Assembly (NCBI GenBank): GCA_029565735.1
Contig: JAKQNO010000070.1
Span: forward strand, 22,542 to 86,541
From: a bacterium
Lineage (GTDB): Bacteria; Oederibacteriota; PGYV01
Length of the DNA: 64,000 nucleotides
Reading direction: 5' to 3'
Numbering within the stretch: position 1 is the first letter of the stretch; each line of letters begins with the position of its first letter. The translations under genes and the position numbers were made by a program. Below the pieces are notes generated by a model. It had not been told where the DNA came from. It ran no database searches and saw only the letters and a list, made by a program, of their open reading frames with translations. Positions 13,324-29,661 of the stretch are shown here, one piece after another.

Positions 13324-14250
13324 ATGGAAGAAAGGCTTAAACAGACAAAAAGAGGCATAAATTCCATAAGGGCGCTGTTGTCCCTTGTAATTTTGCTTTT
13401 GGGAATTTACAACGCGGGCGCCATAATTGAATCCGCGGGGTTTATTTTTTTCTATATTGCAATTGTAATAATATCCAATGTATTTTTTATAATGCTGCCG
13501 GAAAAAATGTACGAAGGCATGAAATTGCATTACATTATTTTCATACTTGATATAATACTTGTATGTTTCGGCGCGTACTGGCTGGGCGGCGTTTCTTTTA
13601 AGATGCTTATGGTAATATTTCTTGCGGTTTTTATGGCTGCCTTAAGCCAGTCCGTCGGGATGAGCCTGGTAATTGCGGCTGTTACAACGGCTGTTTATGT
13701 GATAATAAGTTCAACGGGCAGGGAAACCGGTTTTGCCGGACTGTTTCAGGAAAAAGAGATTCTTAATATCCCGTTTATTTTTGTGGTGTCGCTTCACGCA
13801 AGTTTTATTGCGGAGAAAGCAAATCAGGAGCTGGAAGAAAAGAAAAAGGTCAGGCAGGCTTACGGCGAGCTTGCGGAACAGTTTGAAGGTTTCCGCGGCG
13901 ACATTCACACCTTAAATGAATTTCATTCAAGGGTGTATGATTCTTTAAAACAGGCCGTCATAGTCACGGATGCCTCCGGCGCTGTAAAGGTTTTTAATTC
14001 GCGGGCTGAAGAGATTTTCGGCATAAGAAGGGGCAAGGCGGTTAATTTAAACGTTAACCATCAGGAAGGATTAAGCGGGCCCGCAAAACTTTTAAATGAA
14101 CTGATGCTTAAAAAACAGCCTTCTGATAATAAGGAAATATCGGTTATTGAATCCGGAACCGTTAAAAAATTGCGCGCGAATACAGGAAAAGTAAAAGACA
14201 GGGACGGAAATATTATTGGATACATATTTTCCGCAGAACAGTTTTTTTAA
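13324..14250 (+). CDS. Polytopic membrane protein with a C-terminal PAS-like domain and no output domain
   Basis: About 5 N-terminal TM helices, a coiled linker, then a PAS-like 'LKQAVIVTDASGAVKVFNSRAEEIFG...DRDGNIIGYIF'. Confidence 0.5.
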   Translation: MEERLKQTKRGINSIRALLSLVILLLGIYNAGAIIESAGFIFFYIAIVIISNVFFIMLPEKMYEGMKLHYIIFILDIILVCFGAYWLGGVSFKMLMVIFLAVFMAALSQSVGMSLVIAAVTTAVYVIISSTGRETGFAGLFQEKEILNIPFIFVVSLHASFIAEKANQELEEKKKVRQAYGELAEQFEGFRGDIHTLNEFHSRVYDSLKQAVIVTDASGAVKVFNSRAEEIFGIRRGKAVNLNVNHQEGLSGPAKLLNELMLKKQPSDNKEISVIESGTVKKLRANTGKVKDRDGNIIGYIFSAEQFF

Positions 14251-14260
14251 AGGAGAAAAA

Positions 14261-14749
14261 ATGAAAACGCTTATAATCACAATTTTAACAGTGCTGGGAA
14301 TTGACCAGCTGGTCAAATTTATTATTAAATCCACGATGACCCTTTATCAGTCTATACCGGCCATCAAGGGGTTTTTGAACATAACATATATTGAAAACAG
14401 CGGCGTATCTTACGGCATGCTTGGAAATATTAACCACCCCGCGAAAAGATGGATACTGCTTGCAATAGTGGCGCTTGCAATCGCCGCGATTCTGACCTAC
14501 TGGTACAAATACAGAAGCCCGAAATTTTTATACAACTTCAGCTGCGGGCTTATAATCGGCGGCGCGCTTGGGAATTTTGTTGACCGGCTGCTGTTCGGAA
14601 AAATAACTGACTTCATAGAGGTTTATCATAAATCGTGGCACTTCGCGGTATTCAACGTGGCGGACAGCGCGATAAGCGTGGGTGTTTTCTTTTTCATTAT
14701 TTTTATGCTGATATATGGGGAGGATAAAAATGCACCCCGTAATAGCTGA
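14261..14749 (+). CDS. lspA: Lipoprotein signal peptidase (signal peptidase II)
   Basis: RBS AAGGAG precedes ATG 14261. Motifs NSGVSYG, GGALGNFVDR and FNVADSAISVG. Confidence 0.9.
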   Translation: MKTLIITILTVLGIDQLVKFIIKSTMTLYQSIPAIKGFLNITYIENSGVSYGMLGNINHPAKRWILLAIVALAIAAILTYWYKYRSPKFLYNFSCGLIIGGALGNFVDRLLFGKITDFIEVYHKSWHFAVFNVADSAISVGVFFFIIFMLIYGEDKNAPRNS

Positions 14750-15494
14750 TTTTGGTTTTTTTCAGCTGCGTTCATACGGCCTTTCAACGGCAATAGGCTT
14801 TCTTGCCGGTATTCTGCTTGCCGGAATGCTTGCGAAAAAAGAAGGTTTTAAAGGCGAACCCATAACAGACCTGGGCCTTGTTTCCATAATAGGCGCGGTA
14901 ATAGGGGCAAGGATTTTATACGTGGGGATATGGTGGGATGAAGTGTACGCGAAAAACATAGCGGATGTTTTTAAAGTCTGGGAAGGCGGGCTGGTATTTT
15001 ACGGCGGCCTTATAGGCGCGATTGCCGCGGATATAATCTGGCTGAAGCTGAAAAAACTTCCCATATTAAGAATAGGCGATATCTGCATGCCTTTTGTCGC
15101 GCTTGGCCACGCCATAGGAAGGATAGGGTGTTATTTTAACGGGTGCTGCTACGGCGCGGTTGACGAAAAGTGCGGCGTTGTTTTTCCGGAAATAGGCGAT
15201 AACCTGCCCCATCTTCCGGTTCAGCTTTACGAATCAGCGCTGAATTTTTTAAATTTTCTTTTCCTTCTGATTTTTTACCGCTCGGTCAAAAAAATAAAAG
15301 GGCTGATTTTCTTTTTATATTTTATGAATTACGGCATAATACGTTTAATAATGGAAACCTTCAGGGGAGACGCGGAACGCGGGCAGATTATGAATTTGTC
15401 AACCTCCACTTTCATAAGCATTTTTATGATTGCGGCGGGTGCGGCCGGCGCCGTGTTTGTGTTTGTTAAATGGAAAAAAAATCAGTCAAAGTAA
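14730..15494 (+). CDS. lgt: Prolipoprotein diacylglyceryl transferase
   Basis: RBS GGGAGG precedes ATG 14730; overlaps the lspA end. Motifs GRIGCYFNGCCYG, PVQLYES and RGD. Confidence 0.9.
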   Translation: MHPVIADFGFFQLRSYGLSTAIGFLAGILLAGMLAKKEGFKGEPITDLGLVSIIGAVIGARILYVGIWWDEVYAKNIADVFKVWEGGLVFYGGLIGAIAADIIWLKLKKLPILRIGDICMPFVALGHAIGRIGCYFNGCCYGAVDEKCGVVFPEIGDNLPHLPVQLYESALNFLNFLFLLIFYRSVKKIKGLIFFLYFMNYGIIRLIMETFRGDAERGQIMNLSTSTFISIFMIAAGAAGAVFVFVKWKKNQSK

Positions 15495-25564: not shown

Positions 25565-25666
25565 GCAATCCTCCTTAGTTATGATTTGATTTTAGAATAT
25601 AATCTTTTATTTGTCAAACATTCCTGATAATATAAACATATGCCACATTTGGCGGAGGGTTAAAGC

Positions 25667-25888
25667 TTGCGGTTAAAGCTTGCGGAGAAAACTAGGGAGA
25701 AAACTAGGGAGAAAATATTAAGATTGCTTGCGGAAAATCCAAAAATTAACTCTGTTGAAATTTCGCAGGCGGCTAAAATAACAATTAAAGGCGTTGAGTG
25801 GAATCTGAAAAAACTTAAAGATGAAAGTGTTATTACTCGTATAGGCCCTGATAAAGGCGGTTGTTGGAAGGTTATAAAAAGCAAGTGA
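25667..25888 (+). pseudogene. 3' remnant of a Schlafen/AlbA_2-type regulator gene (only the C-terminal winged-helix tail is left)
   Basis: 'EKTREKTREKILRLLAENPKINSVEISQAAKITIKGVEWNLKKLKDESVITRIGPDKGGCWKVI' looks like the last ~70 aa of COG2865-type proteins. No upstream coding sequence. Short tandem duplications lie at the 5' edge. Confidence 0.45.
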
Positions 25889-26123
25889 CATCGCGTTTTT
25901 CAAGGCGATAAGTTTCTTGGATGGTAGACAGGAGATTGGGCGTAAAGAGCGTGTATTCGGGTGGTGGGTATAGTATTACTTTCTACTTTCAAGGCCCGGA
26001 ACCATTTTGATTTTGCTTTATTTTTGTTTTTTCGTAGCGGGAAAATAAAAATTAAATAGCAAGTATCCCCCCTCGTTTCTTAATTTACATAATTTGTTAT
26101 ACGCTAACTGTTTATTTAGATAC

Positions 26124-26163
26124 TTGACAAAATACCTCGGGGGGGGGGTATAGTAACTATAAT
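26124..26163 (+). promoter_or_regulatory. Promoter carrying a G10 homopolymer tract
   Basis: TTGACA at 26124-26129, G10 at 26139-26148, TATAGT at 26149-26154 (19-nt spacer), and an extra TATAAT at 26158-26163. RBS GGAGGG precedes ATG 26185. Confidence 0.5.
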
Positions 26164-26184
26164 AGATTAAAACAGGAGGGTATT

Positions 26185-28074
26185 ATGAAAAAGTTCATTA
26201 AACTTAGTTCGTTGATAATTCTATTTGTTTTACTGATTATTTCATGTACAAAAAAACGGAATAATCCCGTTGCTCCTTCAGATATTGTTACTAGCACGCC
26301 ACAAATAATAGTTGTCACGGGTACATATACAAATACTCCGACAATCACAGAGTCGTTGGTTATAACTTCTACAAATATTTATACTTTAACAAAAACAGCA
26401 ACATTAACACTTACCAAAACTGAATATATAAGCCCAACAATAACATTTACTTCATCATTAACTTCAACGCAGATATTAGCGGGTTCTTTTACATGCACAG
26501 AATCGGCAACAGATACAATAACGGTGGCACAAACACAAACTGCAACAACCACAAATACACAAACTCACGCAAGTACGTTTACTAATACAATGACAATTAC
26601 AGTAACTCCTACAAACACAAATGTTTCTTTCGGTGAAGGTAACGCAATAATCACTCCTACGCATGTTGAAGTTAACAGCACGGGAAATACTATGCAAATA
26701 GTTTATACTGCAGGAACAACAACGTGGGGAAGTTCACCAGGAGGAAGTTTAAAAATTATTATTCCTTCCGGTTGGAGCTCACCAAGCCTTACATCAACAG
26801 ATGCAGGTTACTTTACTGTTGCGGTAATTAATGGAGGCGTCCTGAAAAATACAAGTGTAAATGGGCAAGTTATAACTCTGAAAATTAGTGATTTATCTGC
26901 AAATGTGGGACAAGTAATTATTAACTATGGGGATAAAAGTAGCGGTGGCCCTGGAGCAACAGCACAAAATTCAGCTTCGATTGCAACGTTTGTTGTTGAA
27001 ACAACAACTAACGGAGATGTTACAACTGAAATTTTAAACAGTCCAACAGTTGATGTAAGTTGGATGCTTGTAGGAAATGCGGGATTTATGGGAAAACTGA
27101 ATACAACAAATTGGAACTCTTTTAAAATGTATAATGGTGTGCCATTTGTTGCATGCTCTGAAAGCGTGGCATCTAATAAAGTATCCGTAATGAAATATGA
27201 AAGTGGCAGCTGGCAATATGTTGGAACACAAGGGTTTTCTACTGGTGCGGCATCATTACATCATGGGGCGTTGGCGATTAATTCAAGCACAGGATCTCCA
27301 TACATAGTCTACTCGGATAGCTCGCTTTCAAACAAAGCGGTAGTTATGACATATACAGGCGTATCGTGGACTGCGGTTGGTAGTTCAAGTGGAATATCAG
27401 ATGGACAGGCTGTTTTTCCTACAATTTTTATTGATAATAATACACCTTATATTAGTTTTAAAGATGTTTTCAATTCAAATAAAGTTACTGTAATGAAATA
27501 TATATCAGGTTCGTGGCAAGTAGTTGGATCAAAGGGATTTTCTCCTGGAGTGCCTTATCAGATAACGGATTTATTTGTATATTCAGGTATTCCATATGTA
27601 AGTTATTTTGATGATACAACTTCAGAAGTTGTTGTTTTAAATTTTGTTGCGGGGTCTTGGCAGGTCGTTGGAATTCCTTTTGCAGGAAACAAAAGTAATT
27701 ATCCACCATTATATATAAACAATGGTATCCCTTACATTGCTTTTATTGAACCAAACAGTCCATATAATGTTTTTCTGATGAAATATGAAAGTGGTAGTTG
27801 GCAAAGTGTAGGTGCTATTGGATATCGAGGAAGTTATCCAGCTATTGCGTTTGATAATAATATTCCATATATTGTTTTTTCTGATCAAGCGATGTCGCTT
27901 GGAAAATTATCCGTTATGAAATATGAAAGTGGAAATTGGCAATTTCAAGGATTGCGAGGATTTACTGCAGACCAAGCGTTACTGCCTAATATAGTTATTT
28001 ATAATGGAACGCCTTATGTGTCATTTCAAGATGGAAATGTTAATTCGCAAATCTCAGTAATGAAGCTTGAATAG
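26185..28074 (+). CDS. Surface lipoprotein: Thr-rich T-x-T stalk, Ig-like middle domain and seven ~48-aa propeller-type repeats
   Basis: Lipobox LIISC|T. Residues ~22-145 are T-x-T rich. 27061-28071 encodes 7 tandem repeats with consensus W-Q-x-V-G..GF....(I/T)PY(I/V).F.D......(V/L)(S/V)VMKYESGS. Confidence 0.7.
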   Translation: MKKFIKLSSLIILFVLLIISCTKKRNNPVAPSDIVTSTPQIIVVTGTYTNTPTITESLVITSTNIYTLTKTATLTLTKTEYISPTITFTSSLTSTQILAGSFTCTESATDTITVAQTQTATTTNTQTHASTFTNTMTITVTPTNTNVSFGEGNAIITPTHVEVNSTGNTMQIVYTAGTTTWGSSPGGSLKIIIPSGWSSPSLTSTDAGYFTVAVINGGVLKNTSVNGQVITLKISDLSANVGQVIINYGDKSSGGPGATAQNSASIATFVVETTTNGDVTTEILNSPTVDVSWMLVGNAGFMGKLNTTNWNSFKMYNGVPFVACSESVASNKVSVMKYESGSWQYVGTQGFSTGAASLHHGALAINSSTGSPYIVYSDSSLSNKAVVMTYTGVSWTAVGSSSGISDGQAVFPTIFIDNNTPYISFKDVFNSNKVTVMKYISGSWQVVGSKGFSPGVPYQITDLFVYSGIPYVSYFDDTTSEVVVLNFVAGSWQVVGIPFAGNKSNYPPLYINNGIPYIAFIEPNSPYNVFLMKYESGSWQSVGAIGYRGSYPAIAFDNNIPYIVFSDQAMSLGKLSVMKYESGNWQFQGLRGFTADQALLPNIVIYNGTPYVSFQDGNVNSQISVMKLE

Positions 28075-28083
28075 GAGGTTTTT

Positions 28084-28302
28084 ATGAAGCTTACACAAAA
28101 GAATCTTAGTAATTATGTTTTGGCATGTGAACACTGTCCAGAAGATGAAGATAGGGTTAAATATAATTGGGAAGCGGTGGATGAATTTATTTACGGAAAT
28201 AATTTTAATAAAAAAGATTTTGAGTCTTTAATTTGTCCCAATTGTAAAACGCCATTACATAACGCTTCAGAAGTGGCTACGCAAATTAAAAAACAGCGAT
28301 AA
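28084..28302 (+). CDS. Small zinc-ribbon-like protein
   Basis: Strong RBS AGGAGG lies 9 nt after the upstream stop. Two CxxC pairs (CEHC, CPNC). Confidence 0.45.
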   Translation: MKLTQKNLSNYVLACEHCPEDEDRVKYNWEAVDEFIYGNNFNKKDFESLICPNCKTPLHNASEVATQIKKQR

Positions 28303-29661
28303 ATTTTTACGAATTTTAGATTTGATCAGTGTGTGTTCGATAAAGTGGTTACATTTTCATCCACCCTATTAAATAAAAAATACCCTGGAGGAGCCATACA
28401 AGGGTTTTAGGATAGGGTAGTCTCGAAGAGAGTACGATATCAAACCCCAGTGCAGATAAAAAATAACAAATAAATGTATTCCTGTCAATTATCGTAAATT
28501 CAAGGCAATGCATGATTAAAGGTGTGTATTCCGCGTGTCCCTTTTAGAATCCCTTCAGCAAAAAAGCATAGCCATTATGGATCTATCTTATTCCTACTTT
28601 TCCGCGTTTTGAATCCACAATATAATTGTTTTAAATCGTTGCATACAATCATTCAGTTTTGGGTTAAGGAGTTGAGACGCGTACTCGTTACTGCGTGATG
28701 TTTTTTTAATCTCAGTCGGAACTTTTAAAAAAAGGATTACTCTTTTCAATTTTGCCCGTTTTCGCGTGCTGGTTGTGGCGCACGATTTTGTGTGCGCTCC
28801 GATTTCATGACGCTGCGGGTAAAATAGCCGTCCACGTTAAAATCTCCACTACAAAATGTGTGACTATATCTTAAAACCTCAAGAGTTTTTGTGTTCCTTT
28901 GTGCGATTAAAGAAAGCACAGACCATTTCGCCTCTAATCTTCACTGTAATTTTGAAAGGTTAGGTTCGAAATTATGGCGAATTCAAAACGAACAGGAAGT
29001 TTCAGAAATGAAGAATTTTGAAATCGTCGGTATCAGACACGGCAAAAAAGTTTTAGTCTTTTCGTTTTTTGAAATATTTAAAGCAATCAATACATCATAA
29101 AGGTGTTTTAAAATGATAAAATTCTACATTTTGTATATATACCCATACCTTAACATAACAACGAAAAAGACACTTGAAGCCTATAAGGAACTTACAGTAA
29201 TACAGGTAGAAAAGGCTTTGTTTGAAACCCCAAGAACAAAAAACGTTTCAATTCATAAACACGCTTAAAGAAAATGTAACAGCATACGGAGGCGGAAATA
29301 TTAAACGGCGGTGAATATGTAAAAACTCAAGATGATGTTATCAGGTACTTTAACAGGATAAACAAGGGCGCTGATAAAGAAATAATTTCAACTATTTTTT
29401 AACGTAAAGAACAGAATTTTAGGAATTAAAGCAATATTGTCTTTATTGTTTTCGGTTTATTGGACTTGATGGGTATTATAAAGTTCAGGCGCTAATCCGG
29501 CCAAAAGAAGAATTGTCCATCCAAAATATCAAAATCCGGTATAAAGGGCAAATAAAGGTATGTTTTTAGTATTTTTTTAAGTATTTTTTGGGAATTTGAT
29601 ATACCAAAATAAAGCGCTTCTGTGATATACTCTCATATTATATGTATTTAAAGGAGGAATT

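Follow-up and report, generated by a model that had tools for sequence, protein, structure and literature searches.

Rax2 is a fungal cell-polarity landmark and a eukaryotic membrane glycoprotein, and we know of no molecular function for its propeller. Among curated sequence families, only Rax2 (PF12768) could be linked to the bacterial propeller described in this study, and both are extracellular propellers. We analysed a lipoprotein gene in a window of 64,000 nucleotides, the whole stretch of DNA under study, from an uncultivated Goldbacteria-lineage bacterium of activated sludge and digesters. In contrast to Rax2, the window protein is bacterial, and neither the whole protein nor its propeller alone matched PF12768, even at E ≤ 10. 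The bacterial family also has its own motif (W-x-x-V-G, G-F-S-x-G, P-Y-V-A-Y-x-D and K-A-T-V-M-K-Y) and strictly seven-blade units. Kelch propellers (Keap1, KLHL) resemble the bacterial propeller in their four-stranded blades of ~45-50 aa (Foldseek probability 1.0) and in motif order, with an aromatic-rich strand, ...Y-x-x-G-x-W and a long loop, and three of the 53 homologues match a Kelch Pfam model. However, the matched Kelch domains are six-bladed (TM 0.45-0.50), and the window protein has no Kelch Pfam match and no Gly-Gly doublet in residues 287-629.

PHL and PLL of Photorhabdus (PDB 6fhx, 6rfz), which bind sugars, and LGI1 EPTP (5y2z, 9kzc), which binds the protein ADAM22, were named as the best structural matches, with seven blades, a similar size and TM 0.62-0.66 (for the PLL/PHL lectins, TM 0.62 at 14-16% identity). 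However, identity over this set was 10-16% with an rmsd of 4.7-6.5 Å, and there was no sequence match to them with the single sequence or even with family profiles. Judged from the predicted model, the likeness to these lectins and to LGI1 EPTP does not go beyond the general fold. BtuG of Bacteroides, a lipoprotein with a seven-bladed propeller, is exposed at the cell surface and binds vitamin B12 (PMC6143338). Like BtuG and Sus-type proteins, the window protein has an N-terminal lipid anchor and linker followed by a beta-rich and putatively ligand-binding head, but its gene has no adjacent transporter gene and no sequence similarity was detected. In Neisseria, porA and fetA undergo phase variation through a homopolymer in the promoter spacer. 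The window gene similarly has a G tract between a -35 TTGACA and a -10-like box, and its length varies among otherwise identical sequences; here, however, only G9 and G10 were seen, in assembled contigs of an uncultivated organism. Literature searches on Rax2 with a propeller or in a bacterial context, and on Goldbacteria lipoproteins, returned nothing relevant, and the Goldbacteria genome paper (PMC7031533) mentions neither propellers, nor lipoproteins, nor a stalk.

Domain organization of the lipoprotein

The gene is an open frame on the forward strand (26185-28074) with a strong ribosome-binding site (AGGAGGG, 26174-26180). Its 629-aa product has four parts: a signal peptide with a lipobox (Cys21), a Thr-rich spacer, one Ig-like domain and seven blades. 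Lipoproteins were recognized by a positively charged n-region, a hydrophobic core and a terminal lipobox, [LVI][ASTVI][GAS]-C. The N-terminus MKKFIKLSSLIILFVLLIISC matched the PROSITE-type lipobox pattern by regular expression (LLIIS-C21; 26185..26247, forward strand), with MKKFIKLSSLIILFVLLIIS directly before the predicted lipid-carrying residue Cys21 and three Lys or Arg among the first seven residues. Genes for LspA (PF01252, 129.8 bits) and Lgt (PF01790, 208 bits) are present in the same genome, both within the window at ~14.2-15.5 kb. The spacer follows at residues 22-150 (26248..26634, forward strand). Thr made up 33% of residues 23-150 (~128 aa), and T-x-T triplets occurred 31 times, compared to 13.2 ± 2.5 (maximum 23) in 1000 composition-preserving shuffles. 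Spacer residues 125-150 were modelled by AF2 without secondary structure and with low confidence (pLDDT 65-71). The original prediction of a lipoprotein with a stalk of alternating Thr agrees with the matched Cys21 lipobox, the LspA and Lgt genes and a T-x-T excess beyond all 1000 shuffles.

An Ig-like segment had also been proposed, and AF2 modelled residues 125-295 as an all-beta sandwich (pLDDT 93.1) ordered from about residue 150. This predicted domain, with the motif SLKIIIPSGWSSPS, covers residues ~151-291 (26635..27057, forward strand). In Foldseek it resembled, weakly (TM 0.40-0.54), the adhesin stalk and binding domains of Ace and Cnm N2, YcnI and CLIPPER. We found 27 homologues of the domain, the family of which is expanded in the Goldbacteria lineage, and tandem arrays occur in related genomes in open frames of up to 3790 aa.

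The propeller occupies residues 292-629 plus the stop codon (27058..28074, forward strand), as delimited with a blade HMM, AF2 and Foldseek. A single-blade HMM, built from homologues only with the window protein left out, found exactly seven units of 44-50 aa (residues 293-342, 343-392, 395-442, 444-487, 492-538, 539-583 and 585-628) with i-E values of 4e-12 to 2e-19, and none of 200 shuffled controls scored above 6.9 bits. The seven tandem units of the original prediction were thus recovered, and its start at nt 27061 corresponds to W293 of the first blade. AF2 closed the propeller into seven blades (pLDDT 94.9, pTM 0.92), as the prediction had anticipated. The model has 28 strands, laid out as one N-terminal strand, six sets of four and three C-terminal strands (1 + 6x4 + 3). 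This count implies a 1+3 Velcro closure, as had been suggested, in which the N-terminal W strand would complete the last blade. Within a blade, the strand order, assigned from strand lengths and loop lengths only, would be W-x-x-V-G (outer strand D), a long G-F-S-x-G-x loop, S-L-A (inner strand A), P-Y-V-A-Y-x-D (strand B) and K-A-T-V-M-K-Y (strand C). DNA identity among the blades was only 61-76%, which rules out a recent blade duplication.

Relationship to named propeller families

Searches of Pfam, NCBIfam and PDB sequences with the 629-aa protein gave nothing meaningful. No Kelch, WD40, FG-GAP, SBBP or NHL model was matched in Pfam at E ≤ 10, and the sole row at that threshold was a chance-level ChpA-C match outside the propeller. 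GH and WD dipeptides are absent, as is the Asp-box S-x-D-x-G-x-x-W of BNR/sialidase-type repeats. When family profiles were searched against the PDB, significant matches were limited to the T9SS tail of homologues, and NHL chains (E 0.078 only) and Kelch chains were non-significant. In contrast to the window protein itself, 31 of 53 homologues matched the Rax2 C-terminal beta-propeller family PF12768 at E ≤ 1e-3 (best 5.3e-17). The family consensus scored 47.9 bits against a gathering threshold of 28.8, and some homologues also exceeded the threshold (41.8 and 42.9 bits). Most homologue scores were sums of sub-threshold stretches, and the blade repeats align at profile positions ~96-168. From these weak matches, we read the propeller as an uncurated branch of the Kelch/Rax2-like class, related to PF12768 and separate from it. 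The repeat had been described as unfamiliar; this stands with respect to Kelch, WD40, FG-GAP, SBBP and NHL, but not with respect to PF12768, which is matched by the homologues and the consensus. No confident profile match to a named repeat family with known function was obtained. In Foldseek searches, the propeller reached TM 0.62-0.68 with seven-bladed propellers in the PDB and up to 0.72 in a viral library; the viral matches were generic propellers and so gave no support for a phage origin.

The family is neither obscure nor narrowly distributed. A first search returned 316 matches, and a profile search raised the number to at least 13,496 representative clusters from a wide range of phyla, with hosts among Bacteroidota, Firmicutes, candidate-phyla-radiation bacteria, Chloroflexi, Goldbacteria and other groups. 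Seven-blade units dominate, with 233 arrays of 7 blades and 27 of 14. A T9SS C-terminal domain is present in 16 of the 53 homologues, and further partners are cadherin, Big_2 and Ig domains, pilin N_methyl and the InlB B-repeat (Flg_new); SLH, sortase and subtilisin domains were also seen among homologues of the first search. The window protein, unlike many homologues, has no T9SS tail. Across 3,012 blades, the conserved residues were W1 (100%), G5 (98%), V41 (91%), Y27 (86%), D32 (85%) and P26 (82%); positions 13, 15, 31 and 33 carried little information (0.43-0.73 bit), and positions 34, 36 and 37 were less extreme (0.95-1.45 bit). The window gene has no orthologue above ~50% partial identity, even in its own genus. 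A longer paralogue of ~880 aa with two stalk domains is a conserved core gene across the order. As far as these profiles can be read, the propeller is a member of a distantly Rax2/Kelch-related, very large and uncurated family of extracellular modules.

Genomic island, promoter and transcription

The gene lies on a ~4.0-kb island (25588..29622) of low GC content, 0.31-0.38 compared to 0.42-0.49 in the flanks. Two genomes of the same genus (G001 and G002) lack the island, and their flanking GGDEF and flavoprotein genes are collinear and ~77-106 bp apart. The gene is accessory, carried by an island which its congeners lack. Neither direct repeats nor target-site duplications were found at the island borders, and Rfam gave no non-coding RNA match in the island at E ≤ 0.1. 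The island also carries 1.36 kb of DNA that is poor in ORFs, and an apparent gene remnant. The latter, a 73-aa winged-helix ORF (25667..25888, forward strand; HTH_24, E 5.6e-10), aligns to positions 423-482 of the 485 in a PHROG DNA-helicase profile, as if only the C-terminal end of a larger gene for a helicase or regulator were left. A defence-system or phage origin of the island was also considered and rejected, as neither the lipoprotein nor the downstream zinc-ribbon ORF had a PADLOC or PHROG match.

A promoter-like region on the forward strand (26124..26163) contains TTGACA (26124-26129), a G10 tract (26139-26148), TATAGT (26149-26154) and TATAAT (26158-26163). TTGACA and TATAGT are separated by 19 nt in the G10 allele and by 18 nt in the G9 allele. 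The tract has ten G in the window and in contigs L051 and L052 and nine in L053-L056, lengths that were read from assembled contigs, so that homopolymer consensus calling may account for part of the difference. It is the only indel in ~4 kb of DNA that is otherwise 99.8-100% identical between samples. A promoter repeat with length polymorphism between near-identical relatives (G9/G10), by which phase-variable genes were recognized, is thus present. The window's own G10 copy, with its 19-nt spacer, may be poorly expressed.

Three other assemblies (L057, L062 and L063) break at one point in the gene, at codon 182/183 (26729..26730). In L057 and L063, nt 26730 adjoins one and the same end of an IS3-like transposase (99.4% identity over 174 nt), and the NCBI contig L062 begins exactly at 26730. 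We read this common breakpoint as a putative IS insertion. An intact 629-aa frame is found on six contigs of different samples (seven on record), without a single letter of difference among them. These observations suggest switching or knockout of the gene within populations. By analogy, the island, the G9/G10 polymorphism and the interrupted alleles form a pattern typical of contingency surface proteins under phage, predator or substrate pressure.

Contigs matching the gene with 100% identity were found in four metatranscriptome runs, and one RNA contig spans 27984-28148, from the lipoprotein gene into the next ORF; these RNA contigs are short and of low depth, and may stem from carried-over DNA. 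The downstream ORF (28084..28302, forward strand) encodes 72 aa with four Cys in a zinc-ribbon-like arrangement, starts 9 nt after the lipoprotein gene and has its own GGAGG. Its Pfam zinc-ribbon matches were all sub-threshold. No homologue was found in 30 related genomes, and a word-indexed search of 5.8 billion proteins returned the ORF alone, which rules out a conserved operon. The two genes had been predicted to form an operon; their adjacency and the junction-spanning RNA contig agree with this, and the zinc-ribbon ORF is probably co-transcribed with the lipoprotein gene, but it is not a conserved functional partner. On present sequence comparisons, it is an orphan. An RNA contig joining 29590 to 26012, which would have pointed to a circular junction, rested on 19-21-nt matches in AT-rich DNA and was regarded as spurious.

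Possible roles of the propeller lipoprotein

We propose, with a probability of about 0.6, that the gene encodes a dispensable and variably expressed envelope lipoprotein that binds a ligand at the cell surface as an adhesin or receptor. The protein would be lipidated at Cys21, and the ~128-aa Thr-rich spacer, probably extended, would hold the C-terminal propeller off the membrane together with the single Ig-like stalk domain. The conserved blade residues would form the scaffold, and the variable positions, which fall in the D-A and B-C loops and would share one disc face, may form the ligand-binding surface. Such a plan of anchor, spacer, Ig-like domain and distal propeller would in part resemble a fibrillar adhesin, with only one stalk domain here compared to two in the paralogue and long tandem arrays in relatives. 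Several structural neighbours (LGI1 EPTP, PHL, PLL and Kelch) are binding propellers, which was counted for the ligand-binding reading. With the lipobox alone, in diderm bacteria, the protein could face the periplasm instead.

The layout of lipid anchor, linker, Ig-like domain and binding head would also suit nutrient capture, with a small molecule or glycan taken up by the propeller and passed to a transporter as in the BtuG and SusE/F-type models. BtuG is a lipoprotein of this kind (PMC6143338), and Goldbacteria entered the literature as polysaccharide degraders bound to cellulose (PMC7031533). However, a TonB-dependent transporter, a SusC/D pair and a glycoside hydrolase are all absent from the island, where the neighbours are the HTH remnant, the orphan ORF and ORF-poor DNA. 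BtuG was not among the 50 best Foldseek PDB matches, and a strain-specific island that has knockout alleles would be a less likely place for an uptake component; we regard nutrient capture as unlikely. Catalysis retains a small probability, as some structural neighbours are enzymes: an envelope-tethered glycoside hydrolase of the GH145 or BNR_4 (sialidase-like) type would agree with Foldseek matches (TM 0.65-0.68) to GH145 (5mvh, 5mum, 5muk) and the BNR_4 putative neuraminidase BACOVA_03493, and with weak BNR_4 matches in 10 of 53 homologues. It is very improbable, since identity to these structures is only 10-13%, the Asp-box and any hydrolase-family match are lacking, and the residues conserved in the 3,012 blades recur in every blade, which argues for a scaffold rather than a single active site. 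The homologues, moreover, combine the propeller with adhesin-type domains and not with CBM or GH modules.

A third account needs no specific ligand: the protein could be a structural component of the envelope or coat (S-layer-like or a spacer), or the gene could be decaying and functionless on a dying island. The neighbours of the ~880-aa core paralogue, SurA-like genes and a DUF11 protein with a T9SS tail, suggest that this architecture has a general role in the envelope, and the gene remnant, the ORF-poor DNA and the IS-disrupted alleles would fit decay. Against this, the frame is intact and identical in different samples, the RBS is strong, the -35 box is consensus, the gene is present in metatranscriptomes, and all seven blades score well against the family profile. 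We consider this account quite improbable.

A surface adhesin or receptor remains our preferred reading, and a wider version of it can be put forward as tentative and rather doubtful. The propeller would represent a distinct, unnamed major family of extracellular binding modules of bacteria (at least 13,000 clusters at 50% identity), always in seven-blade units, of which a giant protein can carry up to about seven, and with variable top-face loops that would serve diverse ligands. The promoter poly-G and the IS knockouts would then be the first contingency switch in the phylum, in an adhesin that would probably double as a phage or predator target.

Propeller-displaying lipoproteins and homopolymer promoter switches are already known, and this locus adds no new principle. 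In its local context, with the strain-specific island, the variable poly-G promoter and the IS-disrupted alleles, it offers a testable example of how a surface protein may be turned on and off in a phylum without cultured members. Thousands of secreted or surface proteins carry this propeller without a dedicated family model, a solved structure or a tested function. Defining the family by its blade motif, seven-blade unit, Velcro closure and weak Rax2 link would improve annotation, in particular of 'hypothetical' T9SS cargo and of cadherin-like and pilin-like proteins, and would provide a well-behaved structural target.

Lipobox, threonine-rich stalk and Ig-like domain

The open frame at 26185-28074 on the plus strand encodes 629 aa, and AGGAGGG lies 4 nt 5' of its ATG. 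The N-terminus, MKKFIKLSSLIILFVLLIIS-C, matches the lipobox pattern with Cys21 as the cysteine, and the genome encodes both LspA and Lgt within the same window, which bears out the original prediction of a lipoprotein. The genes for the lipoprotein signal peptidase (lspA) and the diacylglyceryl transferase (lgt) lie side by side at 14216-15494, and a second lgt-like gene adjoins an IS end on contig C67 of the same genome. The lipoprotein signal is followed by a Thr-rich spacer, with a Thr content of 33% across residues 23-150. We counted 31 T-x-T triplets there, compared with 13.2 +/- 2.5 (maximum 23) in composition-preserving shuffles. The T-x-T alternation proposed for the stalk is therefore real.

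An Ig-like segment had also been proposed between stalk and propeller. The model of residues 125-295 (pLDDT 93.1) agrees with this: residues 125-150 are of low confidence (pLDDT 65-71), order starts at about residue 150, and the ordered part is a beta-sandwich. Its fold matches are weak (TM 0.40-0.54), to YcnI and to adhesin domains, namely the collagen-binding N2 domains of Ace and Cnm, CLIPPER of a fibrillar adhesin, Als and SdrE. In related genomes the domain is much expanded, forming tandem arrays that are roughly 50% identical to the copy in the window. These 'PSGW' arrays (consensus V-P-x-G-W-S-A-P-S ... G-G-P-G-A-T-A) occupy giant open frames of 2149-3790 aa in G006 (C1:43348-50943), G019 (C1:1199943-1210055) and the same-genus genome G002 (C5). 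Some distant homologues match Pfam BslA, and Pfam holds no dedicated model for the domain.

A seven-bladed propeller and its family

A single-blade HMM was built from 53 blades of nine homologues, with the window protein left out. It found exactly seven units in the lipoprotein, at residues 293-342, 343-392, 395-442, 444-487, 492-538, 539-583 and 585-628, with i-E values of 4e-12 to 2e-19 per unit; among 200 shuffled controls the highest score was 6.9 bits. The start given earlier for the seven tandem units, nt 27061, is the first base of W293. An AlphaFold2 model of residues 287-629, made with a 53-sequence alignment, was all-beta (pLDDT 94.9, pTM 0.92) and contained 28 strands: a single one at the N-terminus, then six groups of four, then three at the C-terminus. 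This supports the expected Velcro-closed seven-bladed propeller on a stalk, and the domain is closed in the model. Since the strand count is that of a seven-bladed Velcro propeller and the pTM is high, the last blade would be completed by the N-terminal W-M-L-V strand in a 1+3 closure. Strand and loop lengths suggest that S-L-A forms the inner strand A, P-Y-V-A-Y strand B and A-T-V-M-K-Y strand C. The short W-x-x-V would be the outer strand D, after which a loop of about 12 residues (G-x-x-G-F-S-x-G-x-x-x) may cross to the next blade. The PDB fold neighbours were generic seven-bladed propellers with 7-17% identity, including BACOVA_03493 (TM-score 0.68), GH145 enzymes (0.65-0.67), the LGI1 EPTP domain (0.62-0.66) and the Photorhabdus lectins PHL/PLL (0.61-0.63); six-bladed Kelch domains scored 0.45-0.50. 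Fold matches to phage proteins were similarly generic.

No significant match to the lipoprotein was found in Pfam, NCBIfam or PDB sequences. A motif scan found no GG doublets, Asp-boxes, or GH or WD dipeptides in it. A word-indexed search returned 316 homologues with 28-40% identity. When 1.84 billion cluster representatives were searched with a profile, 13,496 proteins matched at E <= 1e-3, 7,951 at <= 1e-10 and 4,095 at <= 1e-30. Many members carry several propellers, with up to 10-11 matched stretches per protein. In 261 collected members, 233 contiguous arrays consisted of exactly seven blades and 27 of fourteen, which makes the seven-blade unit a family trait.

The nearest curated family is Pfam PF12768, the Rax2 C-terminal beta-propeller, matched by 31 of 53 homologues at E <= 1e-3 (best 5.3e-17) and by the family consensus at 47.9 bits (cut-off 28.8). 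The window lipoprotein itself did not match PF12768 at all, and the Kelch, BNR_4 and NHL signals of the family were marginal. Curated collections contain no dedicated model for the family. The suggestion of an undescribed family needs correcting, however: this one is not obscure, and its relation to Rax2 is detectable. It is best seen as a bacterial offshoot of the Rax2/Kelch-like propeller class that has yet to be curated.

Named sources and genome records place family members in, among others, Bacteroidota, Ca. Kapaibacterium, Ignavibacteriaceae, Paenibacillus, Cohnella, Priestia, Desulfotomaculum, Anaerolineales, Desulfuromonadales, Margulisiibacteriota and Goldbacteria, and in the CPR lineages Falkowbacteria, Nomurabacteria and Pacebacteria. 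A T9SS C-terminal domain is present in 16 of 53 homologues; other partner domains and signals are cadherin, Big_2, a pilin N-methylation signal, InlB B-repeat, SLH, a sortase signal and subtilisin. These partners indicate that the propeller module is extracellular.

A blade logo built from 3,012 blades showed W1 in 100%, G5 in 98%, V41 in 91%, Y27 in 86%, D32 in 85%, P26 in 82%, V4 in 79%, S10 in 78%, G46 in 77%, G8 in 76% and F9 in 75%, with basic residues at K/R43 (83%) and K/R38 (79%). Positions 13, 15, 31 and 33 carry little information (0.43-0.73 bit), and 34, 36 and 37 somewhat more (0.95-1.45 bit). The conserved residues recur from blade to blade, and the variable positions fall in the D-A and B-C loops; the propeller may therefore be a rigid scaffold with a variable binding face. 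That loop face would bind a ligand.

The island, its transcription and its variants

The window's assembly is 2.47 Mb and 99% complete, and the locus occurs in sequencing runs on activated sludge, wastewater and anaerobic digesters. The GC content of the lipoprotein segment is 0.31-0.38 versus 0.42-0.49 in its flanks. Two genomes of the same genus have the CBS-GGDEF and flavoprotein genes of the flanks in collinear order, with just some 77-106 bp between them. The ~4.0 kb at 25588-29622, missing whole from both, is therefore a species-specific island; a search for a target-site duplication or terminal repeats found neither. At 25667-25888 lies a 73-aa HTH_24 winged-helix ORF whose match to a helicase profile of 485 positions is confined to the final 60; it is probably what remains of the C-terminal part of a larger gene. 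Its start is overlapped by two short, perfect tandem repeats, with units of 13 nt and 12 nt. The ~1.36 kb at 28303-29661 is ORF-poor: annotations of other assemblies show only tiny ORFs of 51-69 aa there. Conservation of this stretch from sample to sample is 100%, and it has no Rfam match.

No orthologue of the 629-aa protein was found, even within the genus. A single paralogue is present in the genome, on contig C155; it is about 880 aa long, with a lipobox, a Thr-rich stalk, two Ig-like domains, a second linker (Thr/Pro) and seven blades. This version is conserved and syntenic across the order, and upstream of it stand two SurA-like genes, argC, argJ and the gene of a DUF11 protein with a T9SS tail. 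In most genomes a small lipoprotein of ~140-150 aa follows it.

The lipoprotein gene is transcribed: short contigs 100% identical to it occur in four metatranscriptome runs, at low depth and with DNA carry-over possible. An operon with a zinc-ribbon ORF, also on the island, had been proposed. This ORF starts 9 nt past the lipoprotein stop codon with its own GGAGG, and co-transcription is likely, since a single metatranscriptome contig (27984-28148) runs across the junction. The partnership itself did not hold up, because no homologue was found in 30 related genomes and only a self-match in a word-indexed search of 5.8 billion proteins; by these searches, the ORF is an orphan and not a conserved partner. 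A 160-nt RNA contig from sequencing run X27 joins 26012-26032 to 29572-29590, both AT-rich, in circle-like order. As the matches span only 19-21 nt, a circular junction is probably spurious.

Seven contigs encoding the identical 629-aa protein are on record, and six further ones, from different samples, were compared with the window. They were 99.8-100% identical over ~4 kb. The sole indel was in a G tract (26139-26148) between TTGACA (26124-26129) and TATAGT (26149-26154), which is G10 in the window and in two contigs but G9 in the other four, giving promoter spacers of 19 nt and 18 nt respectively. The G number may thereby affect expression. A 19-nt near-copy of the tract and -10 box (TCGGGTGGTGGGTATAGTA), its G run interrupted by T, lies 180 nt upstream at 25957-25975.

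Three other assemblies break exactly at nt 26730 (codon 182/183). The same IS3-like transposase end, 99.4% identical, abuts this position in two contigs (L057 and L063), and an 84.6-kb NCBI contig (L062) begins there. We read this as insertion of an IS3-like element into the lipoprotein gene in other samples. Database entries truncated to 447 aa and 389 aa are accounted for by the break. The IS junction sequence has an outward-facing TTGACA, and a related IS end (92.9% over 140 nt) lies at the end of contig C67.

The gene is thus dispensable; part of the population carries it in interrupted form, and its promoter holds a hypermutable tract. Contingency surface proteins usually show this combination. 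The lipoprotein would be displayed at the cell surface. Three other readings have less support: a lipoprotein that captures nutrients, of the BtuG or Sus type; an enzyme with a propeller fold on a tether; or a gene that is decaying or has a purely structural role. The propeller family is among the larger unannotated extracellular modules. The finding is of value for defining this uncurated family, and because it offers a locus where on/off control of a surface protein can be tested in a phylum that is uncultivated.
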